From positions 372,001 to 436,000 of the forward strand of contig NW_027138796.1 of the NCBI RefSeq assembly GCF_035084215.1: a stretch of 64,000 nucleotides of DNA, read 5' to 3'. Shown piece by piece: positions 1,561 through 62,657 of this stretch (the first letter of the stretch is position 1; each line of letters opens with the position of its first letter). The notes under the pieces were generated by a model. That model saw only the letters and a program-made list of their open reading frames with translations. It did no database searches and was not told where the DNA came from. The position numbers and the translations under genes were made by a program. The DNA is from Heptranchias perlo (taxonomy: Eukaryota).

Positions 1561-3411
1561 TTCTTAAATATAATTTGTAAGATAAATGTGAAATTAAGTT
1601 AAACTCTTTTTATGTTCTAAATTAATGTCATTTTGTAAAATAAATATGATTTAAAGTTAAACTCTTTTTACTTTCTAAATGAATAAATCTTATTCTTCCT
1701 CCTCCGCCTTTCTGTCCAGCGCGGAAGAATCGACGGCCACCTCTTCGTAATCCTTCTCGAGTGAGGCCAGGTCCTCCCGTGCGTCCTGGAACTCCCCTTC
1801 CTCCAGCCCCTCCCCCACGTACCAGTGGACAAAGGCCCGCTTGGCGTACATCTTATCGAATTTGAGGTTGAGGCGGGTCCAAGCCAAGGAAATGGCGGTG
1901 GTGTTGCTCAGCATACAGAGGGCACGCTGCACCTTTGCCAGATCGCCCCCTGGCACCACCGTCGGGGGCTGGTAGTTGATGCCAACCTGTGGGAAAAGAA
2001 AATTCTTTAGATTTCAGTTGCACAGAAAGGAGCTTCAAAATCAGAGCCGTTGGGAACCACTTAACTATCAGAAAGATAAATTAATGTACCAATGTGTGTC
2101 TATCACTGTACAAAAACCCAGATCTGGTTATTCAGTGGGCTCTTCCCCCAGTTTTAGAGCCTCAGTTTCTGATGGATGGATGCTGTGTAATGAGGCCAGA
2201 TTCCGGGGCTAATTCCTTTCTTCAGTTCATCTTGTCCAATGAGGCCTTGATTTTTCAGGATGCCTTTTCCTTGTTCAAGCAAGGACTTCTCCTGGAACAT
2301 TCAGGGCAAAAATCAAGGATCAGAGCTGAGACAATTCCACCAACAGCCTCAGAGGGAGCTCCTCTTTGGGCCAAGAATGGGGAGGGTCTGAAAGGAGCGA
2401 CAGCTTTTGACCCAGACTGAACAGACGTATTGTTCACGTGGGATATGAGATTGTCAGAATCCATGTTTCCCCAGAGCCCCATGGATTGAACACAAAATCC
2501 ACACTTCCCTTGAACCCGGTCGGGCACCAATCAACAAACTGGATCGAGCGCTTGGTTTTGATGGTGGCGATGGAGGCGTTGACATTCTTTGGCACGACAT
2601 CTCCTCGGTACAGCATGCAGCACGCCATGTACTTGCCCTGGCGGGGGTCGCACTTCACCATCTGATTGGCTGGTTCAAAGCAGGCGTTGGTGATCTCTGA
2701 CACAGATATTTGCTCGTGGTAAGCCTTCTCGGCCGAAATAAGGGGGGAGTAGGTTAATAATGGGAAGTGAATGCGGGGATAAGGGACCAGGTTGGTTTGG
2801 AACTCAGTCAGGTCCACATTGAGGGCACCGTCGAACCGTAGTGACGCCGTGATGGATGACACCAACTGTCCAATGAGACGGTTGAGGTTGGTGTATGTTG
2901 GACGCTCAATGTCAAGATTACGCCGACATATATCATAAAGGGCCTCGTTGTCGACCATGAAGCCGCAGTCAGAGTGCTCAAGGGTGGAGTGGGTGACGAG
3001 CACGGAGTTGTACGGTTCGACCACCGCAGTGGAAATCTGCGGCGCAGGATAAACAGAAAACTCCAGTTTGGATTTCTTGCCGTAGTCTACAGATAGTCTC
3101 TCCATCAGGAGGGATGTAAAACCCGAGCCGGTCCCACCCCCGAAACTGTGGAAAATGAGGAAACCCTGGAGTCCCGTGCACTGGTCAGCCTGTGGGCAAA
3201 GAAGGTACAAAACATTAAAAGGGAGCAGGAAATGGAATCTATCGTCAAAGGACAGTGAACACAGGACAGGAGCAAAAATACTGACCGTCCCTGGTGGGAC
3301 AGGGCAGTGGGAGCTGGTGAGAAGGGGCAGTGGGAGATGGGGAGAAGGGAGAGCGGGAGATGGTGAGAAGGGGCAGCGGGAGCTGTTGGGACTAGACAGT
3401 GGGAGATGGTG

Positions 3412-3687
3412 AACATAGGAACAGGAGTAGGCCATTCAGCCCCTCATGCCTGCTCCGCCATTTGATAAGATCATGGCTGATCTGTTATCTAGCTGCATAT
3501 ACCCGCCTTTGGCCCATATCTCTTAATACCTTTGGTTGCCAAAAAGCTATCCATCTCACATTTAAATGTAGCAATTGAGCTAGTATCAATTGCCGTTTGC
3601 GGAAGAGAGTTCCAAACTTCTACCACCCTTTGTGTAGAAATGATATCCCTTGCAAGTTTCTTTTCATACTCTCTTTTTGTAGCTCTT
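3412..3687 (-). mobile_element. CR1 LINE in intron 3 of copy 1, internally deleted
   Basis: Same two ends as the 1.88-kb intronic CR1 of copies 2-4, with about 1.6 kb removed at 3641-3642. Confidence 0.85.
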
Positions 3688-4465
3688 GTGAGAAGGGGCA
3701 GTGGTAGCTGCTGGGATGGGGCAGTGGGAGATGATAGGATGGGTCAGCGGGAGATGCTGGGAATGGGCAGGGGGAGTTGATTGTAATGGTCAGGGGGAGA
3801 TGATGGGACTGGGCAGTGGGAGATGATGTGATGGGTCAGTGGGAGACGATGGGAGAGACAGTGGGAGATAATGAGATGGGGCAGTGGGAGATGATGGGAT
3901 GGGTCAGTGGGAGATGTTGGGAATGGGCAGGGGGTGTTGATGGGAATGGGCAGGGGGAGATGATGTGATGGGTCAGTGGGAGACGATGGGAGAGACAGTG
4001 GGAGATATTGAGATGGGGCAGTGGGAGATGATGGGATTTGTCAGTGTTGGGAATGTTGGGAATGGGGAGGGCGAGCTGATGGGAATGGGCAGGGGGAGAT
4101 GATGGGACGGGGCAGTGGTAGACTGTGGGACTGGGCAGTGGGAGACTGTGGGAATGGGCATTGGGAGACTGTGGGACTGGGCAGTGCGAGATTATGTGAC
4201 GGAGCAGTGGAAGACTGTGGGACTGGGCAGTGGGAGATGGTGGGACGTGGCAGTGGGAGATGATGGGATGGGGCAATGAGAAATGATGAGACGGGGCAGC
4301 GGGAGATGATGGGACGGGGTAGTGGGAGATGGTGAGAAGGAGCAATGGGAGATGATGGAGGGGTAGTGGGAGATGGTGAGAAGGAGCAGTGGTTGCCGGT
4401 TCGATTAGGCAGTGGGAGATGATGGAGGGGTAGTGGGAGATGGTGAGAGGGGGCAGTGGTTGCCA
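3688..4465. repeat. Intron-3 purine-rich minisatellite, GGCAGTGGGAGATG core (also 17066-18373, 31387-32649, 45899-46848)
   Basis: 22-23-bp units with higher-order blocks; length differs among copies. Confidence 0.9.
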
Positions 4466-4912
4466 GTACACAACTTACCACCTTCCGTATGCGATCCAAG
4501 ACCAGATCCACTATCTCCTTGCCGATGGAACAGTGGCCCCGTGCGTAGTTATTGGCCGCATCCTCCTTGCCGGTGATGAGTTGCTCGGGGTGAAAGAGCT
4601 GTCGGTAGGTGCCGGTGCGGACCTCATCTGGGGGCAGGGAACGGAGAGTTAAAAACCTGAATATGCATCATTTCAAGTATTTTGATACAAGTCTGGCCAT
4701 TTTTCTGGGAACATCTCTCAGTCCTGGGACCACCACCTTTGATCCAGACTGGAAATCCCTGACTGTCCACAGTGACTGGAGTATTGGAGATTGGGAGGAG
4801 AGGGGGAGAGACGATTGGCCAAGCAGCTTCAACTGTCGAGATCTCATGACCAACCCAGCAGCTGGAAGCAGCAAACCAGGAGGATGCCAGGAGCATGAAG
4901 GCCGTGTTCTGC

Positions 4913-5135
4913 TGTCTCAGTTGGTAGCTGGTGCGACAAATTGATCATAGGAGTCGCAGGTTCCATTTGTGGCCTGTGCTGGGTCAGCTGATCTCAGCTA
5001 AGGTGGATATGAGCCCTGATATTAACCTCAGGACCCTGGGTGGGGGGTGGGACAGTAAACAATCCACCTGGGTACCTGCTGCTGTTCCTTACCCAATAAC
5101 TGCACCTGGCAAATGAGTGTATGTGGGGGATGGGG
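4913..5135 (+). mobile_element. Possible degenerate tRNA-derived SINE in intron 2 (also in copies 2-4)
   Basis: A-box-like TGTCTCAGTTGG and B-box-like GGTTCCAT at tRNA-like spacing; boundaries uncertain. Confidence 0.3.
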
Positions 5136-6509
5136 TTAAGGTGGGGACAGTACTGAGCTCAGCTGTGATGGTGCCTGTGGTTGAATTGCTTGCAGGGACT
5201 CAATGTTTGGCCTAATACTTGAAAGAATTGGTGAAGCACCGGAGAGACACGTGGGCCAGTGGAACCAGATTCTGGTAACGGGAAACACCTTCGGGGGAGG
5301 AGGGGAGATACTTGGAGGGGCCAAGACTTGGTCTGTGAGAAGGGAGTTTGTATCAAACAGCAACAAGAGGTAGCAGAACAGTGCCTGTCTGTATCAGGAG
5401 GAAGGACTGTACATGAGTAGGTGTATTGCAATGAGTTTAGTGACACACGACTAACCCATCAACAATCTCTCCCCTTACCGATCACAGTGGGCTCCAGATC
5501 TACAACCACGGCTCGGGGGATGTGCTTGCCCGCCCCCGTCTCACTGAAGAAGGTGTTGAAGGAGTCGTCCCCACCTCCGATGGTCTTGTCACTGGGCATC
5601 TGCCCATCTGGTTGGATCCCATGCTCCAGGCAATACAGCTCCCAGCAAGCATTGCCGACCTGCACGCCGGCCTGGCCAATGTGGATTGAAAGACACTCAC
5701 GCTAAAGAGTGGAGAACACAGGATTATTTACACAGGTAGGAGGACAATGCTTTATACAGTCAGTGGAGGTGGAAGGGAGAAGGGTGTGTGGGCAGCAACA
5801 CGTTCCATTACAGTAACCTGTGGATCCCGTCCATTCCCTGTAGATCTCACCTGCTGCCTGCTGGATCCCTTCTGTCCCCGTGCTATGTTCCACTACCTGT
5901 CGACCCCACCCCCTTCCGATGGACCCCTCTGCTCACGATGGATGTCTTCTCTCCGTGTGCGTTCCCACTCCCTATGGACTCCCTCTCTTCCTCTGGATCC
6001 CCCATTTTCTGTGGTTTCCCACGCCCTGTGTATTGCAGTGCTTCCTGTACATTCCCACTCCCTGTGGACTGCCCTGTCCCAGAGGATTTGCCCACTGACT
6101 GTGGATCCATTGCTCAATGTGGGCCACTCGCTTCCTGAGGAATTCCCCATATTTCTTAAAGATCCCACATTCTGTCACTGACCACCCTCGTTTGCTGTGG
6201 ATATGCATCACCCTGTGGATTCCCAATCTCCCTGTTACTCCTCTCTCCAGATGAATTTCCCACTTTCTCCCTGTGGCTGCCCCGAATCTCCCTGTGGATG
6301 CCCCCAGTCTCCCTGTGGTTCACTCCTCACTCTCTTTTCTGAAGCCCCTCCTCTCAACATCGGTTACTGCTCTCCCTGTCGTTCTTCCTCTCTCCATGTG
6401 GATCCTTCTCTCCCTGTGGATTCCCACCCTCCCTGTGGGTCCTTTCCCTCTCCCTTGGGATGCATTACTCTGACTGGTTCCCTTCTCTCTCCCGACAGAT
6501 TCCCACTCT

Positions 6510-6960
6510 CCTAGTGGATCACACTCTCTCAGTGGATCCCACTCTCTCTGGATCCCTTCTCTCCCTGTCAGATTCCCACTCTCCCAGTGGATCCCCCCTC
6601 CCAGTAGTTCCCTCTCTCCCAGTGGACCGCTCTCTTTCTATGGGTCCCACTCTCCCTGTGAATCCCTCTCCCAGTGGATCCCTCTCTCCTAGTGGATCCC
6701 TCTCTTCCTATGGATCCCACTCTCCCTGTGGATCCCTTCTCTCTCCCAGTCGATCCCACTCTCCCTGTGAATTCCACTCTCCTCGTAGATCCCACTCTCC
6801 CTGTGGATCCCTCTCTCCCAGTAGATCCCACTCTCCCTGTGGATCCCTCTCTCCCAGTGGATCCCACTCTCCCTGTGAATCCCTCTCTCCCTGTGGATCC
6901 CACTCTCCCTGTGAATCCCTCTCTCCCAGTGGATCCCCCTCTCCCTGTGGATCCCTCTGT
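6510..6960. repeat. Intron-1 18/36-bp minisatellite GGATCCCACTCTCCCTGT (also about 20330-20520, 34605-34797, 48805-49105)
   Basis: Copy 4 intron 1 is 108 bp (6x18) longer than in copies 2 and 3. Confidence 0.9.
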
Positions 6961-7064
6961 CTCGGTGGAACACCCTCGCTCTGTGCATTGCCCAGTGAGC
7001 TCTCACCATAATCTCCTCCTATTCTCGCAGCTCTTGAGAATGTGCCTCGTGCTGCCGCTCCCGC

Positions 7065-9739: not shown

Positions 9740-10406
9740 TTTCTGCCCTCACCCCTTCTCCACCCTCCTAGAACCATGATAGGATCCCCCTTGTCCTCAC
9801 CTACCACTCCAACAGCCTCCACATTCAACAGATCATCCTCCGCCATTTCCGCCACCTTCAGCACCACCAAACAGATCTTCCCCCTCCCCTTTCAGGATTC
9901 CGAAGGGATCATTCCTCCGTGACACCCTTGTCCACTCTTCCATCACCCCCAACACCCACTCCCCTTCCTACGGCACCTTCCTGTACAAGCGCAGGAGATG
10001 CATCACCTGCTCTTTCACCTCCCTTCCCACCGTCCAGAGCCCCAAACACTCTTCCAGGTGAAACACTGATTTACTTGTACTTCTTTCAGTTTGGCATACT
10101 GTATTCGCTGCTCACGATGCGGAATCCTGTACATTGGAGAGACCAAACGAGTTTGGGTGATCGCTTTGCTGAACATCTCCGTCCGGCCTGCAAGCGTGAC
10201 CCTGAGTTTCCGGTCACTTGCCATTTTAATTCCCCGTCCCACTCCCACTGTGACCTCTCTGTCCTCGGCCTCCGACACTATTCCAGTGAAGCTCAACGGA
10301 AGCTCAAGGAACAGCACCTCATCTTTCGATTAGACACTTTACAACCTTCTGGACTCAACATTGATTTGATTAAGTTCAGATCAGAACCACTGCTCCCATT
10401 TTTTCA
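9740..10406 (+). mobile_element. Duplicate of the degenerate Penelope-like element (interrupted by a younger PLE; resumes 11879-12022)
   Basis: Near-identical to 320-993. Confidence 0.75.
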
Positions 10407-11878
10407 TGATGTGGAGATGCCGGTGATGGACTGGGGTTGACAATTGTAAACAATTTTACAACACCAAGTTATAGTCCAACGATTTTTATTTGAAATCTAC
10501 AAGCTTTCGGAGGCTTCCTCCTTCCTCAGGTAAATGTCAGGAGCTCCTTGAAGCCCACGCATTTATACATCATAGAACAATAGATGGTGTTTACAGACTG
10601 CCCCTGCAACTGCCCGTTGCCAAGGCAATCACCGTGTTCAGACAGAGAGGTGTCACCGACAGAACCCCCGAATACACATTCAACAAAAAAGCAAACAGGA
10701 AAAAAAGCAGAGAGAGAGAGAGGCAGAAGCATCCGGAAGGCAGAGAAAGCCAGCAAATGACCCATTATATTAAAAACAGATAGCTTTTGTTCGCTGGTGG
10801 GGTAACGTGTAGCGTGACATGAACCCAAGATCCCGGTTGAGGCCGTCCTCATGGGTGCGGAACTTGGCTGTCAATTTCTGCTCGACGATTTTGCGTTGTC
10901 GTGTGTCTCGAAGGCCGCCTTGGACCCACGGCGACGAATCACTAAAGAGACTACACGATAACATCAACAAGTTCCATCCCACCATCAGGCTCACCATGGA
11001 CTACTCCTCAGAATCAGTTTCTTTCTTGGACACACGAATCTCCATCAAAGACGGGCACCTCAGCACCTCACTCGACCGCAAGCCCACGGACAACCTCACG
11101 ATGCTCCACTTTTCCAGCTTCCACCCTAACCACGTCAAAGAGGCCATCCCCTATGGACAGGCCCTGCGAATACACAGGGTCTGCTCAGACGAGGAGGAAC
11201 GGGATGGACACCCACAGACTCTGAAAGACGCCCTGGTAAGAACGGGATATGACGCTTGATTCATCGATCGACAGTTCCGACGGGCCACAGCGAAAAATCG
11301 CATAGACCTCCTCAGAAGACTAACACGGGACACAACCAACAGAGTACCCTTCGTCGTCCAGTACTTCCCCGGAGCGGAGAAACTACGCCATGTTCTCCGC
11401 AGCCATCAACATGTCATCAATGACGACGAACACCTCGCTATGGCCTTCCCCACACCTCCACTACTCGCCTTTAAACAGCCACCCAACCTCAAACAGACTA
11501 TCGTTCGCAGCAAATTACCCAGCTTTCAGGAGAACAGCGTCCACGACACCACACAACCCTGCCACGGTAACCTCTGCAAGACATGCCAGATCATCGACAC
11601 AGATACCACCATCACACGAGAGGACTCCACCCACCAGGTGCATGGTTCATACTCCTGTGACTCGGCCAACGTTGTCTACCTCATGCGCTGCAGGAAAGGA
11701 TGCCCTGGAGCATGGTACATTGGCGAGACCATGCAGACACTGCGACAACGGATGAACGGACACCGCGCAACAATCGCCAGACAGGAGGGTTCCCTCCCAG
11801 TCGGGGAACACTTCAGCAGTCAGGGACATTCAGCCACCGATCTTCGGGTAAGCGTTCTCCAAGGCGGCCTTTGAGACA
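10407..11878. mobile_element. Younger Penelope-like element with inverted 3' segment
   Basis: Plus strand 10921-11878 encodes RT C-terminus/thumb (WTHG..FLD..RKPTD..HP..IPYGQALRIHRVCS), Cys-rich linker and GIY-YIG (VVYLMRC..WYIGET). Minus strand 10924-10407 continues the same protein (QGGLRDTRQRKIVEQKL..GLNRD) into the 3' terminal region. Confidence 0.88.
10495..10535 (-). ncRNA. Minimal type-I hammerhead ribozyme in the Penelope terminal region
   Basis: Minus strand AUUUAC-CUGAGGA-A-GGAGG(AAG)CCUCC-GAAA-GCUU-GUAGAU: intact core, 5-bp stem II, 6-bp stem I, palindromic AGCU helix III. Confidence 0.8.
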
Positions 11879-12022
11879 CACATCTTCCAGTTCTGACAAA
11901 AGGCCATTGACCTGAAAGGTTAACTCTGTTTCTTTCTCCACAGATGCTGCCTGACCTGCTGAGTAATTCCAGCATTTTCTGTTTTTATTTCAGATTCCAG
12001 CGTCTGCAGTATTTTGCTTTTG

Positions 12023-12649
12023 ATTCAGTGTTTTAATGACTGAAGTGCTGTGTGACTGCAGCTCTGTGGAGTTTGATTAAGCCCCATTCTGGGTCCATTG
12101 ATCCTCTTTCAAGTTCTAACGTCTTTTTTTACACGTGTTTCTCAATCTCTTGTCATGTATTTGTGGCTTTTAAATCGACACAATTCCAAAATCATTCAAA
12201 AATATTTATTTTCTTAAATATAATTTGTAAGATAAATGTGAAATTAAGTTAAACTCTTTTTATGTTCTAAATTAATGTCATTCTTTAGATTTCAGTTGCA
12301 CAGAAAGGAGCTTCCAAATCAGAGCCGTTGTGAACCACTCAACTATCAGAAAGATAAATTAATGTACCAATGTGTGTCTATCACTGTACAAAAACCCAGA
12401 TCTGGTTATTCACTGGCTCTTCCCCCAGTTTTAGAGCCTCAGTTTCTGATGGATGGATGCTGTGTAATGAGGCCAGATTCCGGGGCTAATTCCTTTCTTC
12501 AGTTCATCTTGTCCAATGAGGCCTTGATTTTTCAGGATGCCTTTTCCTTGTTCAAGCAAGGACTTCTCCTGGAACATTCAGGGCAAAAATCAAGGATCAG
12601 AGCTGAGACAATTCCACCAACAGCCTCAGAGGGAGATCCTCTTTGGGCC
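12023..12649 (-). pseudogene. Deleted remnant of another alpha-tubulin copy (3' flank/3'UTR fused to intron 4; no coding exon left)
   Basis: 11879-12282 duplicates 1229-1632, then joins the equivalent of 2005 (exon-5 CDS removed) and follows copy-1-type intron 4 to the equivalent of 2372, where it fuses to a CR1 3' end. Confidence 0.8.
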
Positions 12650-13305: not shown

Positions 13306-13311
13306 TTTATT
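13306..13311 (-). terminator. Putative polyadenylation signal, copy 2 (same site present in copies 3-5)
   Basis: AATAAA on minus strand in the same context as copy 1. Confidence 0.55.
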
Positions 13312-13477: not shown

Positions 13478-16400
13478 TTATTCTTCCTCCTCCGCCTTTC
13501 TGTCCAGCGCAGAAGAATCGACGGCCACCTCTTCGTAATCCTTCTCGAGTGAGGCCAGGTCCTCCCGTGCGTCCTGGAACTCCCCTTCCTCCAGCCCCTC
13601 CCCCACGTACCAGTGGACAAAGGCCCGCTTGGCGTACATCTTATCGAATTTGAGGTTGAGGCGGGTCCAAGCCAAGGAAATGGCGGTGGTGTTGCTCAGC
13701 ATACAGAGGGCACGCTGCACCTTTGCCAGATCGCCCCCTGGCACCACCGTCGGGGGCTGGTAGTTGATGCCAACCTGTGGGAAAAGAAAATTCTTCAGAT
13801 TTCAGTTGCACAGAAAGGAGCTTCAAAATCAGAGCTGTTGGGAACCACGTAACGATCAGAAAGATAAATTTTTGAATCAGTGTGTGTCTTTGTACAAGAA
13901 CCCAGCTCTGGTTATTCACTGGGCTCTTCCCCCAGTTTTCGAGCCTCAGTTTCTGATGGATGGATGCTGTGTAATGAGGCCAGATTCCGGGGCTAATTCC
14001 TTTCTTTAGTTCATCTTTTCCAATGAGGCCTTGATTTTTCAGGAAGCCTTTTCCTTGTTCGAGCAAGGACTTCTCCTTGGACATTCAGGGCAAAAATCAA
14101 TGATTAGAGCCTCAGAGGGAGCTATTGTTTGGGCCAGGAATGGGGGACAGCTTTTGACCCAGACTGAACAGACGTATTGTTCACGTGGGATATGAGATTG
14201 TCAGAATCCATGTTTCCCCAGAGCCCCATGGATTGAACACAAAACCCACACTTACCTTGAACCCGGTCGGGCACCAATCAACAAACTGGATCGAGCGCTT
14301 GGTTTTGATGGTGGCGATGGAGGCGTTGACATCCTTTGGCACGACATCTCCTCGGTACAGCATGCAGCACGCCATGTACTTGCCCTGGCGGGGGTCGCAC
14401 TTCACCATCTGATTGGCTGGTTCAAAGCAGGCGTTGGTGATCTCTGACACAGATATTTGCTCGTGGTAAGCCTTCTCGGCCGAAATAAGGGGGGAGTAGG
14501 TTAATAATGGGAAGTGAATGCGGGGATAAGGGACCAGGTTGGTTTGGAACTCAGTCAGGTCCACATTGAGGGCACCGTCGAACCGTAGTGACGCCGTGAT
14601 GGATGACACCAACTGTCCAATGAGACGGTTGAGGTTGGTGTATGTTGGACGCTCAATGTCAAGATTACGCCGACATATATCATAAAGGGCCTCGTTGTCG
14701 ACCATGAAGCCGCAGTCAGAGTGCTCAAGGGTGGAGTGGGTGACGAGCACGGAGTTGTACGGTTCGACCACCGCAGTGGAAATCTGCGGCGCAGGATAAA
14801 CAGAAAACTCCAGTTTGGATTTCTTGCCGTAGTCTACAGATAGTCTCTCCATCAGGAGGGATGTAAAACCCGAGCCGGTCCCACCCCCGAAACTGTGGAA
14901 AATGAGGAAACCCTGGAGTCCCGTGCACTGGTCAGCCTGTGGGCAAAGAAGGTACAAAACATTAAAAGGGAGCAGGAAATGGAATCTATCGTCAAAGGAC
15001 AGTGAACACAGGACAGGAGCAAAAATACTGACCGTCCCTGGTGGGACAGGGCAGTGGGAGCTGGTGAGAAGGGGCAGTGGGAGATGGGGAGAAGGGAGAG
15101 TGGGAGATGGTGAGAAGGGGCAGTGGGAGCTGGTGAGAAGGGGCAGCGGGAGCTGTTGGGACTAGACAGTGGGAGATGGTGAACATAGGAACAGGAGTAG
15201 GCCATTCAGCCCCTCATGCCTGCTCCGCCATTTGATAAGATCATGGCTGATCTGTTATCTAGCTGCATATACCCGCCTTTGGCCCATATCTCTTAATACC
15301 TTTGGTTGCCAAAAAGCTATCCATCTCACATTTAAATGTAGCAATTGAGCTAGTATCAATTGCCGTTTGCGGAAGAGAGTTCCAAACTTCTACCACCCTT
15401 TGTGTGTGTAGAAATGTTTTCTAATCTCACTCCTGAAAGGTCTGGCTCTAATCTTAAGACTGTGCCCCCTGCTCCTAGAATCCCCAACCAATGGAAATAG
15501 TTTCTCTCTATCCGTTCCCCTTAATATCTTATAAACTTCGATCAGATCACCCCTTAACCTTCTGAACTCCAGAGAATACAACCCCAATTTGCGTAATCTG
15601 TCCTCGTAACTTAATCCTTGAAGTCTGGGTATCATTCTGGGAAACCTACGCTGCGCTCCCTCCAAGGCCAATATGTCCTTCCGAAGGTGTGGTGCCCAGA
15701 ACTGCTCACAGTACTCCATGTGCGGTCTAACCAGGGTTTTGTATATCTGCAGCATAACTTCTGCCCCCTTGCACTCCAGTCCTCTAGATATAAAGGCCAG
15801 CATTCCATTAGCCTTATTGATTATTTTCTGCACCTGTTCATGACACTTCAATGATCGATGTACCTGAACCCCGAAGTCCCTTTGGACATCCACTGTTTTT
15901 AATGTTTTACCATTTAGAAAGTACCCTGTTCTATCCTTTTTTGATCCAAAGTGGATGACCTCACATTTGTCTATATTGAATTCCATTTGCCACAATTTTG
16001 CCCATTCACCTAATCTATCAATATCCCTTTGTAATTTTATGTTTTCATCTTCACTGCTTACAATGCCACCAATCTTTGTGTCATCGGCAAACTTAGATAT
16101 GAGACTTTCTATGCCTTCATCTAAGTCGTTAATAAATATTGTGAATAATTGAGGCCCCAAGACAGATCCCTGCGGGACTCCACTGGTCACATCCTGCCAA
16201 TGTGAATACTTACCCATTATCCCTACTCTCTGTCGCCTTTCGCTCCGCCAATTTCCTAACCAAGTCCGTACTTTTCCCTCGATTCCATGGGCTTCTAACT
16301 TAGCTAACAGTCTCTTATGTGGGACCTTATCAAATGCCTTCTGGAAGTCCATATAAATAATATCCATTGATATTCCCCTGTCCACGACTTTAGTCACTTC

Positions 16401-19400
16401 TTCAAAAAATTCAATCAGGTTTGTCAGGCACGACCTACCTTTCACAAATCTATGCTGGCTCTCCCTGATTAACTGAAAATTCTCAAGGTGTTCAGTCACC
16501 CTATCCTTAATTATAGACTCCAGCAATTTCCCCACAACAGATGTTAGGCTAACTGGTCTATCATTCCCCGGTTTCCCTCTCTCTCCTTTCTTAAAAAGCG
16601 GAGTGACGTGCAATTTTCCAATCTAGAGGGACAGTTCCTGAATCTAGAGAACTTTGAAAGATTATAGTTAGGGCATTTGCAATCTGCTCACCTACTTCCT
16701 TTAAAACCCTGGGATGGAAACCATCTGGTCCTGGGGATTTGTCAATCTTTAGTGCTATTATTTTCTTCATTACTGTTGCTTTACTTATGTTAATTTTATC
16801 GAGTCCCTGTCCCCGATTCAATATTAGTTTTGTTGGGATTTCCAGCATGCTATCCTCTTTTTCTACTGTAAATACTGACGCAAAGTAATTATTCAACATG
16901 TCCGCCAGTTCCCCATTGTCAATGACAATATCCCCACTTTCAGTTTTTAAGGGGCCAAACCTGCTCCTGACCACCCTCTTTTTCCTAATATAACTATAAA
17001 AGTTCTTCGTATTGGTTTTGATATCCCTTGCAAGTTTCTTTTCATACTCTCTTTTTGTAGCTCTTGTGAGAAGGGGCAGTGGTAGCTGCTGGGATGGGGC
17101 AGTGGGAGATGATGGGATGGGTCAGCGGGAGATGCTGGGAATGGGCAGGGGGAGTTGATTGGAATGGTCAGGGGGAGATGATGGGACTGGGCAGTGGGAG
17201 ATGATGTGATGGGTCAGTGGGAGACGATGGGAGAGACAGTGGGAGATAATGAGATGGGGCAGTGGGAGATGATGGGATGGGTCAGTTGGAGATGTTGGGA
17301 ATGGGCAGGGGGTGTTGATGGGAATGGGCAGGGGGAGATGATGTGATGGGTCAGTGGGAGACGATGGGAGAGACAGTGGGAGATATTGAGATGGGGCAGT
17401 GGGAGATGATGGGATTTGTCAGTGTTGGGAATGGGGAGGGCGAGCTGATGGGAATGGGCAGGGGGAGATGATGGGACGGGGCAGTGGTAGACTGTGGGAC
17501 TGGGCAGTGGGAGACTGTGGGAATGGGCATTGGGAGACTGTGGGACTGGGCAGTGCGAGATTATGTGACGGAGCAGTGGAAGACTGTGGGACTGGGCAGT
17601 GGGAGATGGTGGGACGGGGCAGTGGGAGATGATGGGATGGGGCAATGAGAAATGATGAGACGGGGCAGCGGGAGATGATGGGACGGGGTAGTGGGAGATG
17701 GTGAGAAGGAGCAATGGGAGATGATGGGAGAGGTTGTGGGAGATGGTGAGAAGGAGCAGTGGTTGCCGGTTCAATTAGGCAGTGGGAGATGATGGAGGGG
17801 TAGTGGGAGATGGTGAGAGGGGGCAGTGGGAGATGATGGGAGAGGTTGTGGGAGATGGTGAGAAGGAGCAGTGGGAGATGGTGAGAAGGAGCAGTGGGAG
17901 ATGGTGAGAAGGAGCAGTGGTTGCCGGTTCGATTAGGCAGTGGGAGATGATGGAGGGGTAGTGGGAGATGGTGAGAAGGAGCAGTGGGAGATGATGGGAG
18001 AGGTTGTGGGAGATGGTGAGAAGGAGCAGTGGGAGATGGTGAGAAGGAGCAGTGGTTGCCGGTTCGATTAGGCAGTGGGAGATGATGGAGGGGTAGTGGG
18101 AGATGGTGAGAGGGGGCAGTGGGAGATGATGGAGGGGTAGTGGGAGATGGTGAGAGGGGGCAGTGGTTGCCGGTTCGATTAGGCAGTGGGAGATGATGGA
18201 GGGGTAGTGGGAGATGGTGAGAGGGGGCAGTGGTTGCCGGTTCGATTAGGCAGTGGGAGATGATGGAGGGGTAGTGGGAGATGGTGAGAAGGAGCAGTGG
18301 TTGCCGGTTCGATTAGGCAGTGGGAGATGATGGAGGGGTAGTGGGAGATGGTGAGAGGGGGCAGTGGTTGCCAGTACACAACTTACCACCTTCCGTATGC
18401 GATCCAAGACCAGATCCACTATCTCCTTGCCGATGGAACAGTGGCCCCGTGCGTAGTTATTGGCCGCATCCTCCTTGCCGGTGATGAGTTGCTCGGGGTG
18501 AAAGAGCTGTCGGTAGGTGCCGGTGCGGACCTCATCTGGGGGCAGGGAACGGAGAGTTAAAAACCTGAATATGCATCATTTCAAGTATTTTGATACAAGT
18601 CTGGCCATTTTTCTGGGAACATCTCTCAGTCCTGGGACCACCACCTTTGATCCAGACTGGAAATCCCTGACTGTCCACAGTGACTGGAGTATTGGAGATT
18701 GGGAGGTGAGGGGGAGAGACGATTGGCCAAGCAGCTTCAACTGTCGAGATCTCATGACCAACCCAGCAGCTGGAAGCAGCAAACCAGGAGGATGCCAGGA
18801 GCATGAAGGCCGTGTTCTGCTGTCTCAGTTGGTAGCTGGTGCGACAAATTGATCAGAGGAGTCGCAGGTTCCATTTGTGGCCTGTGCTGGGTCAGCTGAT
18901 CTCAGCTAAGGTGGATATGAGCCCTGATATTAACCTCAGGACCCTGGGTGGGGGGTGGGACAGTAAACAATCCACCTGGGTACCTGCTGCTGTTCCTTAC
19001 CCAATAACTGCACCTGGCAAATGAGTGTATGTGGGGGATGGGGTTAAGGTGGGGACAGTACTGAGCTCACCTGTGATGGTGCCTGTGGTTGAATTGCTTG
19101 CAGGGACTCAATGTTTGGCCTAATACTTGAAAGAATTGGTGAAGCACCGGAGAGACACGTGGGCCAGTGGAACCAGATTCTGGTAACGGGAAACACCTTC
19201 GGGGGAGGAGGGGAGATACTTGGAGGGGCCAAGACTTGGTCTGTGAGAAGGGAGTTTGTATCAAACAGCAACAAGAGGTAGCAGAACAGTGCCTGTCTGT
19301 ATCAGGAGGAAGGACTGTACATGAGTAGGTGTATTGCAATGAGTTTAGTGACACACGACTAACCCATCAACAATCTCTCCCCTTACCGATCACAGTGGGC

Positions 19401-20573
19401 TCCAGATCTACAAACACGGCTCGGGGGATGTGCTTGCCCGCCCCCGTCTCACTGAAGAAGGTGTTGAAGGAGTCGTCCCCACCTCCGACGGTCTTGTCAC
19501 TGGGCATCTGCCCATCTGGTTGGATCCCATGCTCCAGGCAATACAGCTCCCAGCAAGCATTGCCGACCTGCACGCCGGCCTGGCCAATGTGGATTGAAAG
19601 ACACTCACGCTAAAGAGTGGAGAACACAGGATTATTTACACAGGTAGGAGGACAATGCTTTATACAGTCAGTGGAGGTGGAAGGGAGAAGGGTGTGTGGG
19701 CAGCAACACGTTCCATTACAGTAACCTGTGGATCCCGTCCATTCCCTGTAGATCTCACCTGCTGCCTGCTGGATCCCTTCTGTCCCTGTGCAACGTTCCA
19801 CTACCTGTCGACCCCACCCCCTTCCGATGGACCCCTCTGCTCACGATGGATGTCTTCTCTCCGTGTGCGTTCCCACTCCCTGTGGACTGCCCTGTCCCAG
19901 AGGATTTGCCCACTGACTGTGGATCCATTGCTCAATGTGGGCCACTCACTTCCTGAGGAATTCCCCATATTTCTTAAAGATCCCACATTCTGCCATTGAC
20001 CACCCTCGTTTGCTGTGGATATGCATCACCCTGTGGATTCCCAATCTCCCTGTGACTCCTCTCTCCAGATGGATTTCCCACTTTCTCCGTGTGGCTGCCC
20101 CGAATCTCCCTGTGGATGCCCCCAGTCTCCCTGTGGTTCACTCCTCACTCTCTTTTCTGAAGCCCCTTCTCTCAACATCGATTACTGCTCTCCCTGTCGT
20201 TCTTCCTCTCTCCATGTGGATCCTTCTCTCCCTGTGGATTCCCACCCTCCCTGTGGGTCCTTTCCCTCTCCCTTGGGATGCATTACTCTGACTGGTTCCC
20301 TTCTCTCTCCCGACAGATTCCCACTCTCCCAGTGCATCACACTCTCTCAGTGGATCCCACTCTCCCTGTGGATCTACTCTCCCAGTAGATCCCACTCTCC
20401 CTTTGAATTCCTCTCTCCCAGTAGATCCCACTCTCCCTGTGAATCCCTCTCTCCCAGTAGATCCCACTCTCCCTGTGAATCCCTCTCTCCCAGTGGATCC
20501 CCCTCTCCCTGTGGATCCCTCTGTCTCGGTGGAACACCCTCGCTCTGTGCATTGCCCAGTGAGCTCTCACCAT
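13478..20573 (-). CDS. TUBA: Alpha-tubulin copy 2 (450 aa, 5 coding exons)
   Basis: Exons 20573-20571, 19609-19387, 18535-18387, 14936-14256, 13774-13478; all introns GT-AG. MRECLSIH start, K40, [15 protein letters not shown] (E254), ends [13 protein letters not shown]. Residue 42 is Val. Confidence 0.95.
15182..17065 (-). mobile_element. 5'-truncated CR1 LINE (RT and 3' end) in intron 3 of copy 2
   Basis: ORFs 15390-16613 and 16591-16974: [29 protein letters not shown]; inserted in the intronic minisatellite with a possible GTGA duplication. Confidence 0.92.
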
Positions 20574-20628
20574 AATCTCCTCCTATTCTCGCAGCTCTTG
20601 AGAATGTGCCTCGTGCTGCCGCTCCCGC

Positions 20629-20747
20629 TATTTATACCCCGCCCGATAGAACCCTCCTATTCAGCAAATCGGGCTCTGATTGGTCTGTGAGAACAATGGC
20701 CTATTGTTGCTTTGTTAAACGTAGCGACGTTGCTCAGTGCTGATTGG
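20629..20747 (-). promoter_or_regulatory. Core promoter of tubulin copy 2
   Basis: Same TATA/GC/2xCCAAT arrangement as copy 1. Confidence 0.8.
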
Positions 20748-20831
20748 TTCATTGTGTAAAAGGCGGAACCAAGAATTCGCAACATTCTTTTATGGGAGGA
20801 GCGCCAGGGAACAAGAGAATTCCCCTTACCC

Positions 20832-27798: not shown

Positions 27799-34849
<7,051 letters not shown>

Positions 34850-42335: not shown

Positions 42336-45300
42336 TTATTCTTCCTCCTCCGCCTTTCTGTCCAGCGCAGAAGAATCGACGGCCACCTCTTCGTAATCCT
42401 TCTCGAGTGAGGCCAGGTCCTCCCGTGCGTCCTGGAACTCCCCTTCCTCCAGCCCCTCCCCCACGTACCAGTGGACAAAGGCCCGCTTGGCGTACATCTT
42501 ATCGAATTTGAGGTTGAGGCGGGTCCAAGCCAAGGAAATGGCGGTGGTGTTGCTCAGCATACAGAGGGCACGCTGCACCTTTGCCAGATCGCCCCCTGGC
42601 ACCACCGTCGGGGGCTGGTAGTTGATGCCAACCTGTGGGAAAAGAAAATTCTTCAGATTTCAGTTGCACAGAAAGGAGCTTCAAAATCAGAGCTGTTGGG
42701 AACCACGTAACGATCAGAAAGATAAATTTTTGAATCAGTGTGTGTCTTTGTACAAGAACCCAGCTCTGGTTATTCACTGGGCTCTTCCCCCAGTTTTCGA
42801 GCCTCAGTTTCTGATGGATGGATGCTGTGTAATGAGGCCAGATTCCGGGGCTAATTCCTTTCTTTAGTTCATCTTTTCCAATGAGGCCTTGATTTTTCAG
42901 GAAGCCTTTTCCTTGTTCGAGCAAGGACTTCTCCTTGGACATTCAGGGCAAAAATCAATGATTAGAGCCTCAGAGGGAGCTATTGTTTGGGCCAGGAATG
43001 GGGGACAGCTTTTGACCCAGACTGAACAGACGTATTGTTCACGTGGGATATGAGATTGTCAGAATCCATGTTTCCCCAGAGCCCCATGGATTGAACACAA
43101 AACCCACACTTACCTTGAACCCGGTCGGGCACCAATCAACAAACTGGATCGAGCGCTTGGTTTTGATGGTGGCGATGGAGGCGTTGACATCCTTTGGCAC
43201 GACATCTCCTCGGTACAGCATGCAGCACGCCATGTACTTGCCCTGGCGGGGGTCGCACTTCACCATCTGATTGGCTGGTTCAAAGCAGGCGTTGGTGATC
43301 TCTGACACAGATATTTGCTCGTGGTAAGCCTTCTCGGCCGAAATAAGGGGGGAGTAGGTTAATAATGGGAAGTGAATGCGGGGATAAGGGACCAGGTTGG
43401 TTTGGAACTCAGTCAGGTCCACATTGAGGGCACCGTCGAACCGTAGTGACGCCGTGATGGATGACACCAACTGTCCAATGAGACGGTTGAGGTTGGTGTA
43501 TGTTGGACGCTCAATGTCAAGATTACGCCGACATATATCATAAAGGGCCTCGTTGTCGACCATGAAGCCGCAGTCAGAGTGCTCAAGGGTGGAGTGGGTG
43601 ACGAGCACGGAGTTGTACGGTTCGACCACCGCAGTGGAAATCTGCGGCGCAGGATAAACAGAAAACTCCAGTTTGGATTTCTTGCCGTAGTCTACAGATA
43701 GTCTCTCCATCAGGAGGGATGTAAAACCCGAGCCGGTCCCACCCCCGAAACTGTGGAAAATGAGGAAACCCTGGAGTCCCGTGCACTGGTCAGCCTGTGG
43801 GCAAAGAAGGTACAAAACATTAAAAGGGAGCAGGAAATGGAATCTATCGTCAAAGGACAGTGAACACAGGACAGGAGCAAAAGTACTGACCGTCCCTGGT
43901 GAGAAGGGGCAGTGGGAGATGGGGAGAAGGGAGAGTGGGAGATGGTGAGAAGGGGCAGTGGGAGCTGGTGAGAAGGGGCAGCGGGAGCTGTTGGGACTAG
44001 ACAGTGGGAGATGGTGAACATAGGAACAGGAGTAGGCCATTCAGCCCCTCATGCCTGCTCCGCCATTTGATAAGATCATGGCTGATCTGTTATCCAGCTG
44101 CATATACCCGCCTTTGGCCCATATCTCTTAATACCTTTGGTTGCCAAAAAGCTATCCATCTCACATTTAAATGTAGCAATTGAGCTAGTATCAATTGCCG
44201 TTTGCGGAAGAGAGTTCCAAACTTCTACCACCCTTTGTGTGTAGAAATGTTTTCTAATCTCACTCCTGAAAGGTCTGGCTCTAATTTTTAGACTGTGCCC
44301 CCTACTCCTAGAATCCCCAACCAATGGAAATAGTTTCTCTCTATCCGTTCCCCTTAATATCTTATAAACATCGATCAGATCACCCCTTAACCTTCTGAAC
44401 TCCAGAGAATACAACCCCAATTTGCGTAATCTGTCCTCGTAACTTAATCCTTGAAGTCTGGGTATCATTCTGGGAAACCTACGCTGCGCTCCCTCCAAGG
44501 CCAATATGTCCTTCCGAAGGTGTGGTGCCCAGAACTGCTCACAGTACTCCATGTGCGGTCTAACCAGGGTTTTGTATATCTGCAGCATAACTTCTGCCCC
44601 CTTGCACTCCAGTCCTCTAGATATAAAGGCCAGCATTCCATTAGCCTTATTGATTATTTTCTGCACCTGTTCATGACACTTCAATAATCGATGTACCTGA
44701 ACCCCGAAGTCCCTTTGGACATCCACTGTTTTTAATGTTTTACCATTTAGAAAGTACCCTGTTCTATCCTTTTTTGATCCAAAGTGGATGACCTCACATT
44801 TGTCTATATTGAATTCCATTTGCCACAATTTTGCCCATTCACCTAATCTATCAATATCCCTTTGTAATTTTATGTTTTCATCTTCACTGCTTACAATGCC
44901 ACCAATCTTTGTGTCATCGGCAAACTTAGATATGAGACTTTCTATGCCTTCATCTAAGTCGTTAATAAATATTGTGAATAATTGAGGCCCCAAGACAGAT
45001 CCCTGCGGGACTCCACTGGTCACATCCTGCCAATGTGAATACTTACCCATTATCCCTACTCTCTGTCGCCTTTCGCTCCGCCAATTTCCTAACCAAGTCC
45101 GTACTTTTCCCTCGATTCCATGGGCTTCTAACTTAGCTAACAGTCTCTTATGTGGGACCTTATCAAATGCCTTCTGGAAGTCCATATAAATAATATCCAT
45201 TGATATTCCCCTGTCCACGACTTTAGTCACTTCTTCAAAAAATTCAATCAGGTTTGTCAGGCACGACCTACCTTTCACAAATCTATGCTGGCTCTCCCTG

Positions 45301-48300
45301 ATTAACTGAAAATTCTCAAGGTGTTCAGTCACCCTATCCTTAATTATAGACTCCAGCAATTTCCCCACAACAGATGTTAGGCTAACTGGTCTATCATTCC
45401 CCGGTTTCCCTCTCTCTCCTTTCTTAAAAAGCGGAGTGACGTGCAATTTTCCAATCTAGAGGGACAGTTCCTGAATCTAGAGAACTTTGAAAGATTATAG
45501 TTAGGGCATTTGCAATCTGCTCACCTACTTCCTTTAAAACCCTGGGATGGAAACCATCTGGTCCTGGGGATTTGTCAATCTTTAGTGCTATTATTTTCTT
45601 CATTACTGTTGCTTTACTTATGTTAATTTTATCGAGTCCCTGTCCCCGATTCAATATTAGTTTTGTTGGGATTTCCAGCATGCTATCCTCTTTTTCTACT
45701 GTAAATACTGACGCAAAGTAATTATTCAACATGTCCGCCAGTTCCCCATTGTCAATGACAATATCCCCACTTTCAGTTTTTAAGGGGCCAAACCTGCTCC
45801 TGACCACCCTCTTTTTCCTAATATAACTATAAAAGTTCTTCGTATTGGTTTTGATATCCCTTGCAAGTTTCTTTTCATACTCTCTTTTTGTAGCTCTTGT
45901 GAGAAGGGGCAGTGGTAGCTGCTGGGATGGGGCAGTGGGAGATGATGGGATGGGTCAGCGGGAGATGCTGGGAATGGGCAGGGGGAGTTGATTGGAATGG
46001 TCAGGGGGAGATGATGGGACTGGGCAGTGGGAGATGATGTGATGGGTCAGTGGGAGACGATGGGAGAGACAGTGGGAGATAATGAGATGGGGCAGTGGGA
46101 GATGATGGGATGGGTCAGTGGGAGATGTTGGGAATGGGCAGGGGGTGTTGATGGGAATGGGCAGGGGGAGATGATGTGATGGGTCAGTGGGAGACGATGG
46201 GAGAGACAGTGGGAGATATTGAGATGGGGCAGTGGGAGATGATGGGATTTGTCAGTGTTGGGAATGGGGAGGGCGAGCTGATGGGAATGGGCAGGGGGAG
46301 ATGATGGGACGGGGCAGTGGTAGACTGTGGGACTGGGCAGTGGGAGACTGTGGGAATGGGCATTGGGAGACTGTGGGACTGGGCAGTGCGAGATTATGTG
46401 ACGGAGCAGTGGAAGACTGTGGGACTGGGCAGTGGGAGATGGTGGGACGGGGCAGTGGGAGATGATGGGATGGGGCAATGAGAAATGATGAGACGGGGCA
46501 GCGGGAGATGATGGGACGGGGTAGTGGGAGATGGTGAGAAGGAGCAGTGGTTGCCGGTTCAATTAGGCAGTGGGAGATGATGGAGGGGTAGTGGGAGATG
46601 GTGAGAAGGAGCAGTGGGAGATGATGGGAGAGGTAGTGGGAGATGGTGAGAAGGAGCAGTGGGAGATGGTGAGAAGGAGCAGTGGTTGCCGGTTCGATTA
46701 GGCAGTGGGAGATGATGGAGGGGTAGTGGGAGATGGTGAGAAGGAGCAGTGGGAGATGGTGAGAGGGGGCAGTGGTTGCCGGTTCGATTAGGCAGTGGGA
46801 GATGATGGAGGGGTAGTGGGAGATGGTGAGAGGGGGCAGTGGTTGCCAGTACACAACTTACCACCTTCCGTATGCGATCCAAGACCAGATCCACTATCTC
46901 CTTGCCGATGGAACAGTGGCCCCGTGCGTAGTTATTGGCCGCATCCTCCTTGCCGGTGATGAGTTGCTCGGGGTGAAAGAGCTGTCGGTAGGTGCCGGTG
47001 CGGACCTCATCTGGGGGCAGGGAACGGAGAGTTAAAAACCTGAATATGCATCATTTCAAGTATTTTGATACAAGTCTGGCCATTTTTCTGGGAACATCTC
47101 TCAGTCCTGGGACCACCACCTTTGATCCAGACTGGAAATCCCTGACTGTCCACAGTGACTGGAGTATTGGAGATTGGGAGGAGAGGGGGAGAGACGATTG
47201 GCCAAGCAGCTTCAACTGTCGAGATCTCATGACCAACCCAGCAGCTGGAAGCAGCAAACCAGGAGGATGCCAGGAGCATGAAGGCCGTGTTCTGCTGTCT
47301 CAGTTGGTAGCTGGTGCGACAAATTGATCAGAGGAGTCGCAGGTTCCATTTGTGGCCTGTGCTGGGTCAGCTGATCTCAGCTAAGGTGGATATGAGCCCT
47401 GATATTAACCTCAGGACCCTGGGTGGGGGGTGGGACAGTAAACAATCCACCTGGGTACCTGCTGCTGTTCCTTACCCAATAACTGCACCTGGCAAATGAG
47501 TGTATGTGGGGGATGGGGTTAAGGTGGGGACAGTACTGAGCTCAGCTGTGATGGTGCCTGTGGTTGAATTGCTTGCAGGGACTCAATGTTTGGCCTAATA
47601 CTTGAAAGAATTGGTGAAGCACCGGAGAGACACGTGGGCCAGTGGAACCAGATTCTGGTAACGGGAAACACCTTCGGGGGAGGAGGGGAGATACTTGGAG
47701 GGGCCAAGACTTGGTCTGTGAGAAGGGAGTTTGTATCAAACAGCAACAAGAGGTAGCAGAACAGTGCCTGTCTGTATCAGGAGGAAGGACTGTACATGAG
47801 TAGGTGTATTGCAATGAGTTTAGTGACACACGACTAACCCATCAACAATCTCTCCCCTTACCGATCACAGTGGGCTCCAGATCTACAAACACGGCTCGGG
47901 GGATGTGCTTGCCCGCCCCCGTCTCACTGAAGAAGGTGTTGAAGGAGTCGTCCCCACCTCCGACGGTCTTGTCACTGGGCATCTGCCCATCTGGTTGGAT
48001 CCCATGCTCCAGGCAATACAGCTCCCAGCAAGCATTGCCGACCTGCACGCCGGCCTGGCCAATGTGGATTGAAAGACACTCACGCTAAAGAGTGGAGAAC
48101 ACAGGATTATTTACACAGGTAGGAGGACAATGCTTTATACAGTCAGTGGAGGTGGAAGGGAGAAGGGTGTGTGGGCAGCAACACGTTCCATTACAGTAAC
48201 CTGTGGATCCCGTCCATTCCCTGTAGATCTCACCTGCTGCCTGCTGGATCCCTTCTGTCCCTGTGCAACGTTCCACTACCTGTAGACCCCACCCCCTTCC

Positions 48301-49156
48301 GATGGACCCCTCTGCTCACGATGGATGTCTTCTCTCCGTGTGCGTTCCCACTCCCTGTGGACTGCCCTGTCCCAGAGGATTTGCCCACTGACTGTGGATC
48401 CATTGCTCAATGTGGGCCACTCACTTCCTGAGGAATTCCCCATATTTCTTAAAGATCCCACATTCTGCCATTGACCACCCTCGTTTGCTGTGGATATGCA
48501 TCACCCTGTGGATTCCCAATCTCCCTGTGACTCCTCTCTCCAGATGGATTTCCCACTTTCTCCGTGTGGCTGCCCCGAATCTCCCTGTGGATGCCCCCAG
48601 TCTCCCTGTGGTTCACTCCTCACTCTCTTTTCTGAAGCCCCTTCTCTCAACATCGATTACTGCTCTCCCTGTCGTTCTTCCTCTCTCCATGTGGATCCTT
48701 CTCTCCCTGTGGATTCCCACCCTCCCTGTGGGTCCTTTCCCTCTCCCTTGGGATGCATTACTCTGACTGGTTCCCTTCTCTCTCCCGACAGATTCCCACT
48801 CTCCCAGTGCATCACACTCTCTCAGTAGATCCCACTCTCCCTGTGGATCTACTCTCCCAGTAGATCCCACTCTCCCTTTGAATTCCTCTCTCCCAGTAGA
48901 TCCCACTCTCCCTTTGAATTCCTCTCTCCCAGTGGATCCCACTCTCCCTGTGGATCCCTCTCTCCCAGTAGATCCCACTCTCCCTGTGAATCCCTCTCTC
49001 CCAGTGGATCCCCCTCTCCCTGTGGATCCCTCTCTCCCAGTGGATCCCACTCTCCCTGTGAATCCCTCTCTCCCAGTGGATCCCCCTCTCCCTGTGGATC
49101 CCTCTGTCTCGGTGGAACACCCTCGCTCTGTACATTGCCCAGTGAGCTCTCACCAT
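42336..49156 (-). CDS. TUBA: Alpha-tubulin copy 4 (450 aa, 5 coding exons)
   Basis: Exons 49156-49154, 48084-47862, 47010-46862, 43794-43114, 42632-42336; GT-AG introns; intact frame. Residue 42 is Val. Confidence 0.95.
44017..45898 (-). mobile_element. 5'-truncated CR1 LINE in intron 3 of copy 4
   Basis: Same insertion; RT ORF 44076-45446 (456 aa) is uninterrupted to its end here. Confidence 0.92.
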
Positions 49157-61198: not shown

Positions 61199-62657
61199 TT
61201 ATTCTTCCTCCTCCGCCTTTCTGTCCAGCGCAGAAGAATCGACGGCCACCTCTTCGTAATCCTTCTCGAGTGAGGCCAGGTCCTCCCGTGCGTCCTGGAA
61301 CTCCCCTTCCTCCAGCCCCTCCCCCACGTACCAGTGGACAAAGGCCCGCTTGGCGTACATCTTATCGAATTTGAGGTTGAGGCGGGTCCAAGCCAAGGAA
61401 ATGGCGGTGGTGTTGCTCAGCATACAGAGGGCACGCTGCACCTTTGCCAGATCGCCCCCTGGCACCACCGTCGGGGGCTGGTAGTTGATGCCAACCTGTG
61501 GGAAAAGAAAATTCTTCAGATTTCAGTTGCACAGAATGGAGCTTCAAAATCAGAGCTGTTGGGAACCACTTAACGATCAGAAAGATAAATTTTTGAATCA
61601 GTGTGTGTCTTTGTACAAGAACCCAGCTCTGGTTATTCACTGGGCTCTTCCCCCAGTTTTCGAGCCTCAGTTTCTGATGGATGGATGCTGTGCAATGAGG
61701 CCAGATTCCGGGGCTAATTCCTTTCTTTAGTTCATCTTTTCCAATGAGGCCTTGATTTTTCAGGAAGCCTTTTCCTTGTTCGAGCAAGGATTTCTCCTTG
61801 GACATTCAGGGCAAAAATCAATGATTAGAGCCTCAGAGGGAGCTATTGTTTGGGCCAGGAATGGGGGACAGCTTTTGACCCAGACTGAACAGACGTATTG
61901 TTCACGTGGGATATGAGATTGTCAGAATCCATGTTTCCCCAGAGCCCCATGGATTGAACACAAAACCCACACTTACCTTGAACCCGGTCGGGCACCAATC
62001 AACAAACTGGATCGAGCGCTTGGTTTTGATGGTGGCGATGGAGGCGTTGACATCCTTTGGCACGACATCTCCTCGGTACAGCATGCAGCACGCCATGTAC
62101 TTGCCCTGGCGGGGGTCGCACTTCACCATCTGATTGGCTGGTTCAAAGCAGGCGTTGGTGATCTCTGACACAGATATTTGCTCGTGGTAAGCCTTCTCGG
62201 CCGAAATAAGGGGGGAGTAGGTTAATAATGGGAAGTGAATGCGGGGATAAGGGACCAGGTTGGTTTGGAACTCAGTCAGGTCCACATTGAGGGCACCGTC
62301 GAACCGTAGTGACGCCGTGATGGATGACACCAACTGTCCAATGAGACGGTTGAGGTTGGTGTACGTTGGACGCTCAATGTCAAGGTTACGCCGACATATA
62401 TCATAAAGGGCCTCGTTGTCGACCATGAAGCCACAGTCAGAGTGCTCGAGGGTGCAGTGGGTGACGAGCACGGAGTTGTACGGTTCGACCACCGCAGTGG
62501 AAATCTGCGGCGCAGGGTAAATGGAAAACTCCAGTTTGGATTTCTTGCCGTAGTCGACAGATAGTCTCTCCATCAGGAGGGATGTAAAACCCGAGCCGGT
62601 CCCACCCCCGAAACTGTGGAAAATGAGGAAACCCTGGAGTCCCGTGCACTGGTCAGC
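61199..62657 (-). CDS. TUBA: Alpha-tubulin copy 5, exons 4-5 only (5' part beyond window)
   Basis: Exon 4 62657-61977 and exon 5 61495-61199, canonical splice sites; variant residues FSIY and THCT. Confidence 0.9.

Follow-up and report, generated by a model that had tools for sequence, protein, structure and literature searches.

What has become of an alpha-tubulin whose helix H11, helix H12 and C-terminal tail depart from the standard isotype, and does such a protein still take part in the tyrosination cycle? The question is raised by a gene in a 64,000-nucleotide stretch of Heptranchias perlo DNA, hereafter the window. H11 is near-invariant from sponges to mammals, and brain malformations in humans result from some substitutions there; a different H11/H12 face, fixed in one vertebrate lineage and kept in many copies, is a natural experiment on the purpose of this surface.

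An intact alpha-tubulin gene with an altered outer surface

Exon 5 of an intact, five-exon gene for a 450-residue alpha-tubulin occupies 13478..13774 (reverse strand); the gene is the second copy of a tandem array (copy 2). The exons measure 3, 223, 149, 681 and 297 nt, the ATG lies at 20573 and the stop at 13478, and all introns are of the GT-AG type. On this same strand, the coding part of exon 1 (20571..20573) consists of the ATG alone, followed by a GTGAGA donor, exon 2 (19387..19609) begins with REC and has a canonical K40 loop, exon 3 (18387..18535) carries Y108C and T109S, and exon 4 (14256..14936) encodes residues 126-352, holding GGGTGSG, E254 and H309Q. Exon 5 supplies residues 353-450 and the stop, including H11, H12 and a tail that reads [13 protein letters not shown]; its reverse-strand translation is a 98-residue peptide with the last letters [17 protein letters not shown]. 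A candidate polyadenylation signal, AATAAA, is found 166 nt past the stop (13306..13311, reverse strand). The Tubulin and Tubulin_C domains are both present, and the best solved-structure matches are alpha chains, in register.

The promoter-like region (20574..20823, reverse strand), assigned from motif matches only, has CCAAT at -174 and -110, a GC box at -71 and TATAAA at -63 from the ATG, and shows 0-2 differences per 250 nt across copies 1-4. A scan of this region for RFX- and MYB-like sites gave two RFX-type half-sites, which we do not count as evidence, and no MYB-type site. For copy 2 the CpG observed/expected ratio reaches 0.75 over the coding sequence and 0.87 over the promoter, versus 0.35 for the window.

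The initial annotation had described a rewritten H11 surface and tail, and comparison with canonical TUBA1 (P0020) bears this out: A385S, E386L, A389T, D392N, H393L and L397K are all present in H11, and S419Q and E420D in H12. The tail lacks a terminal Tyr and is less acidic, as had been noted, with six acidic and two basic residues from D438, versus eight and none in the canonical protein, and it ends in EEEE. The MREC, K40, GGGTGSG and E254 elements listed as retained are indeed kept in the spliced 450-residue product. Further changes are M413L, A427S and G436A in exon 5, and Y108C, T109S, T190V, T193S and H309Q outside it. The nucleotide-site residues E71, D98, N101, S140, N206, Y224 and N228 are kept. 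Overall, the protein is 89% identical to canonical TUBA1A/1B and has the GTP site, E254, K40, MREC, R402, E414 and E415 in common with it, but differs by 40 substitutions in residues 1-439 and by the rewritten tail. Residues 384-437 contain twelve of these 40, more than chance would place there (Fisher P = 0.0014), and the six in H11 sit within a helical arc of 140 degrees that keeps clear of W388, L391 and F395 (70 of 5005 possible sets). The AlphaFold model of a skate relative (P0127) is of low confidence, with a mean pLDDT of 50.7 and values below 50 over residues 363-452, and the helical tail that it predicts is set aside.

The proposal that such a chain yields polymerisation-competent microtubules with an altered tubulin code agrees with the intact frame, the kept GTP site and E254, the conservation in sharks and rays and a pN/pS of 0.09 (see below), from which we would expect it to hold. 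The accompanying suggestion that motor contacts are rewritten fares poorly: R402, E414 and E415, described as critical for dynein and kinesin in the passages available from one study, where the yeast numbering is one higher (PMC4298687), are kept, and E420D is conservative. Rewiring of the motor interface as the main effect was rejected because these three residues are in place.

Relationship to other alpha-tubulins

The initial annotation had named BLASTP and phylogeny as checks, and sequence searches and a tree put it in a shark-and-ray clade. The best single-domain matches to exon 5 are shark and ray models called 'tubulin alpha chain-like', at 88-96% identity versus about 85% for canonical chains, and a second search, with the C-terminal region of the Heterodontus protein as query, returned the same shark and ray set on top. 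These RefSeq models, for example Heptranchias XP_067833590.1, Heterodontus XP_067880357.1, Amblyraja XP_032891365.1 and Carcharodon XP_041037356.1, have the same H11/H12 signature and tail type and are 91-94% identical overall; residues 353-439 of the Heptranchias model match the window gene at 87 of 87 positions. They are machine annotations with generic or misleading names, and this unnamed multi-copy family is mislabelled in shark and ray annotations as alpha-1, alpha-1C, alpha-1D or alpha-8. Counting search matches and the cluster members listed (15 of 36 in the main cluster), the family occurs in at least 14 genera: Amblyraja, Leucoraja, Rhinoraja, Pristis, Heterodontus, Heptranchias, Carcharodon, Cetorhinus, Chiloscyllium, Hemiscyllium, Stegostoma, Rhincodon, Scyliorhinus and Mustelus. 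Of 313 fetched proteins, 43 bore at least two of five marks of the signature, every one of them from a shark or ray, and six further proteins of that set had H309Q alone.

A quick maximum-likelihood tree of 57 rows joins the 22 family rows without exception in a single group (SH-aLRT 100, stem 0.14), which stands apart from the TUBA1, TUBA3, TUBA4A, TUBA8 and teleost tuba8l rows, the comparison covering no TUBAL3 sequence. No sister group was resolved in this tree, and the counts of shared diagnostic residues, highest in long-branch invertebrates, gave no clear sister either. The window gene carries the full clade signature, comprising Y108C, T109S, T190V, H309Q, a replaced E386, a hydrophobic residue at 393, L397K, M413L, S419Q, E420D, L442 and no terminal aromatic residue. 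No holocephalan or bony-vertebrate member appeared among the matches listed, which were searched via 90% clusters; this is weak evidence that the family is absent outside sharks and rays, and orthologues from holocephalans or bony fishes could be concealed inside large canonical clusters. A profile search for non-elasmobranch relatives yielded outgroups; since fused gene models crowded its results, it says little about absence. The 90% cluster of P0195 mixes tubulins with POFUT2 proteins, and cluster membership is thus not fully reliable.

The amniote TUBA3 and TUBA8 genes, like the window gene, have five exons and an intron following codon 352, and their proteins have two to three conservative residues in common with its product, but they end in Y or F, keep the TTL patch and fall outside the family clade. 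Orthology to TUBA8 or TUBA3 was rejected, since there is no grouping in the tree and no terminal Y/F in the window gene. Amniote TUBA4A is likewise encoded without a terminal Tyr and with an EE end, but its H11 is canonical, it retains H309, its tail is purely acidic, and it lies elsewhere in the tree; orthology was again rejected, the window gene neither grouping with TUBA4A nor having a canonical H11. Other lineage-specific divergent tubulins are Drosophila alpha67C and primate TUBB8 and TUBAL3. Branch-specific alpha-tubulin duplications are described for frog and sauropsid clusters, in passages that do not mention sharks (PMC4202323); these divergent duplicates arose in a similar way, by branch-specific duplication and divergence, but in independent lineages. 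Tyr-less tails (TUBA4A) and branch-specific duplications are already known. A literature search at the level of titles and abstract openings, covering sources other than subscription journals and supplements, returned no description of this isotype.

In a nested subfamily, which we call B (support 97), the rewriting extends to the K40 loop, M-loop and tail. Its proteins (P0094, P0111, P0116, P0143, P0145, P0160, P0314, P0315 and P0318-P0320), from 10 shark and ray genera, are about 80-85% identical to the window gene and have a basic K40 loop and a weakly acidic tail; the M-loop makes lateral contacts. Subfamily B is possibly more surprising than the window gene itself.

The TTL docking site and the tyrosination cycle

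The initial annotation had concluded that this tubulin has no tyrosination cycle. As an argument from the tail this does not follow, since the tail ends in EE, like that of TUBA4A; the conclusion becomes likely once the replacements at H309, E386, H393 and E441 are counted. According to the passages available from a study of the TTL-tubulin complex (PMC3563685), TTL contacts H393, R390, H309, P175, E433, E207, E386 and R308 of alpha-tubulin and anchors the tail at E441, E449 and E450, two terminal Glu being required. With E449 and E450 in register, the product of the window gene nominally remains a substrate of TTL, and five of the eight body contacts are kept (P175, E207, R308, R390 and E433), while three are replaced (H309Q, E386L and H393L). 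The tail anchor at 441 is Ala in the window gene, and Asp in 8 and Ser in 3 of 12 subfamily-A rows. H309Q and E386L leave TTL Arg66 with neither of its listed partners, and Arg51 loses its own through H393L, so that re-tyrosination would fall even though the tail ends in EE. The same passages report that the TTL mutation R66E abolishes tyrosination in neurons and that free tail peptides are tyrosinated at about 1/50 of the efficiency (PMC3563685).

In an enrichment test picked after the H11 changes had been seen, the presence of three of these eight contacts among the seven radical fixed changes has P = 0.00014 over 439 positions, and P = 0.01-0.04 under a null of 60-100 surface positions; with all 14 fixed changes and the surface-only null (60-100 positions) it is not significant (P = 0.08-0.27). 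H309Q lies outside the region of the initial annotation and was checked after the TTL contact list had been read.

Other proteins use the same patch, as far as the passages available from the respective studies describe. For VASH1 the comparison uses a helix-level statement plus Y108: it sits on H11, H12 and Y108 of the adjacent protofilament (PMC7449697). The CKK domain of CAMSAP1 approaches H393 (PMC6868217), and SPEF1 uses E386 and H309 (PMC11642885). The binding of all three would therefore weaken too, and TTL need not be the driver of the change.

This overlap also fits a protein resembling TUBA4A, born untyrosinated and still tyrosinated by TTL, in which H11 and H12 changed for another partner, for example by excluding CAMSAP (through H393) or SPEF1 (through E386 and H309), or by binding a lineage-specific MAP. 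The EE end in register, the five kept body contacts and the conclusion of the TTL study's authors that tail length and composition barely matter to the enzyme (PMC3563685) all speak for it. We nevertheless regard it as somewhat unlikely, given that both Arg66 partners are gone, with the R66E effect in neurons as the reported precedent, and that H11 and H309 are unaltered in the TUBA4A rows, which have none of the diagnostic residues in common with the family.

Proposed role of the family

We therefore favour, with a probability of roughly 0.55, a family member without terminal Tyr whose partly replaced TTL patch would give motor-competent, permanently untyrosinated microtubules with a new hydrophobic H11 face, probably in the germ line. 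As read from the sequence, the alpha chain would assemble into microtubules on which motors can work; TTL Arg66 and Arg51 would lose their partners and the microtubules would stay untyrosinated; and the same replacements would weaken binding of VASH1, the CAMSAP CKK domain and SPEF1. The stripe of hydrophobic residues and Lys at 386, 393 and 397 probably takes a new partner, either a MAP or the conserved tail Leu442 of the family. The tandem array would supply dosage, and expression is probably in a specialised cell with high demand, perhaps the germ line; the tissue is guessed from the example of other amplified divergent tubulins. Untyrosinated microtubules would also disfavour CAP-Gly proteins. 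The family offers a direct test of exit from the tyrosination cycle via the enzyme docking site rather than via the tail, and its substitutions, available as a natural set, could serve to distinguish binding of TTL, VASH1, CAMSAP and SPEF1 from motor function.

Germ-line use is our best guess. In elasmobranchs the sperm head is helical and the flagellum reinforced, according to passages that are silent on tubulin isotypes (PMC11856307). More tentatively, the family may predate the split of sharks and rays and be locked out of the tyrosination cycle twice, by the missing Tyr and by the missing TTL/VASH patch, with the new H11 face and the arrays possibly serving a lineage-specific structure, e.g. 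the spermatid microtubules that shape the helical sperm, and with the K40 loop and M-loop rewritten in addition in subfamily B. If this two-level lock-out is true, it would be a natural vertebrate tubulin that is permanently untyrosinated.

The same isotype might instead be somatic, working in the marginal bands of nucleated erythrocytes or thrombocytes or in another stable bundle and not in germ cells. In the passages available on platelets, the alpha-tubulin of the marginal band is chiefly the Tyr-less TUBA4A, which determines the detyrosinated state of the band (PMC6374996). The promoter motifs are counted in favour of a somatic role, being generic CCAAT, GC and TATA elements with no MYB-type site by the pattern used. 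We count against it that tandem amplification, birth-and-death turnover and a faster-evolving subfamily are seen more often in germ-line genes; the database models without exon 1 may, in addition, mean poor coverage in commonly sampled tissues. On balance we consider it unlikely that the isotype is somatic, and retain permanently untyrosinated microtubules, probably of the germ line, as the preferred reading.

Constraint and turnover in the tandem array

The window contains five alpha-tubulin copies, head to tail on the reverse strand, with a spacing of about 12-19 kb. Copy 1 (1690..7009) has a full frame with a GT>GG change in the intron-4 donor as well as F67V and D327N, and is likely decaying. 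Copy 3 (27799..34849) is intact and differs from copy 2 solely by V42I, copy 4 (42336..49156) is intact with the same coding sequence as copy 2, and copy 5 is represented by exons 4-5 (61199..62657), its exons 1-3 lying past the window end. A remnant at 11901..12649 (reverse strand) is a duplicated 3' end of copy 1, in which intron 4 is joined to the 3' flank and exon 5 is deleted. Intron 4 of copy 1 is 5.8% diverged, yet its exons differ by one base each, a mosaic divergence that suggests gene conversion. Elsewhere in the family, among the proteins listed, at least 13 copies share one contig in Amblyraja, at least four in Rhinoraja and at least two in Heterodontus. Many skate models carry lesions, and many database models lack exon 1.

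The initial annotation had noted that the exon-5 peptide is identical in all five copies. The identity is real, but it does not stand as an argument for selection: the introns of copies 2-4 are as alike as the exons (0/481 differences in intron 4 and 0-2/851 in intron 2), so the identity reflects recent duplication or homogenisation. The comparison of copies 2 and 5 is more telling. Their exons 4 have nine differences, seven synonymous and two non-synonymous, and the dN/dS check named in the initial annotation, run only as pN/pS, gives 0.09 (P = 0.0009); there is purifying selection between these copies. All nine differences fall within codons 159-223, which suggests a conversion boundary.

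Residue tallies across the family were made on 348 fetched proteins, 336 of them with a usable anchor, the family list being hand-picked by signature and cluster; the proteins are search-biased and related, and thus not independent. With these limits, all 50 family members lack E386, which 275 of 286 other proteins retain, and position 393 is L, V, M or I in all 50 versus His in 267/286. Position 397 is Lys in 49/50 and Leu in 286/286 others, M413L is found in 48/49 versus Met in 265/265, S419Q in 49/49, Asp at 420 in 48/49 versus Glu in 263/265, and Y108C in 42/43 versus Tyr in 219/220. A terminal Y/F occurs in none of 46 family members, against 241 of 255 others. Such switches from one fixed state to another suggest a new constraint rather than decay, and the uniformly hydrophobic 393 with the nearly uniform Lys at 397 indicates that the H11 face has probably gained a new contact.

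Relaxed, degenerating duplicates, dispensable copies whose changes amount to tolerated drift, would account for the broken splice donor and the two changes at conserved residues in copy 1, the exon-5-less remnant nearby and the variability of position 386 in subfamily B. Positions 188, 286, 397 and 419, substituted here, are also human TUBA1A disease-variant positions in the passages available from one source (PMC9666403), and L397P is listed among human disease variants in those from another (PMC9975266). Drift is nonetheless very improbable, given that the same replacements are fixed across at least 14 genera while the remainder of the protein is 91-94% identical, that pN/pS is 0.09 and that the changes are confined to one helical face.

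That the five copies are an assembly artefact from one gene, as the near-identity of copies 2-4, introns included, in a repeat-rich region might suggest, is extremely improbable, since intron lengths vary by unit (1305, 961, 961 and 1069 for intron 1; 1289, 3450, 3405 and 3067 for intron 3), SNPs and flanking LINE insertions differ among copies, and the skate, Rhinoraja and Heterodontus assemblies also have several copies per contig.

Mobile elements and repeats surround the copies. Open frames at 9772-11871 and 204-993 of the window resemble what we take to be Penelope/GIY-YIG retroelement fragments, with no Pfam match for the one frame scanned. Between copies 4 and 5 (56524-60391) lies a LINE with a GDSL-esterase ORF1 and an ORF2 with endonuclease and reverse-transcriptase domains (Pfam), and older reverse-transcriptase fragments are found in intron 3 and in the spacers of the array. 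A G-rich tandem repeat of 29 nt (20820-21700 of the window and equivalent positions) is located directly upstream of each promoter and varies in length by copy; it has a possible role in unequal crossing-over.
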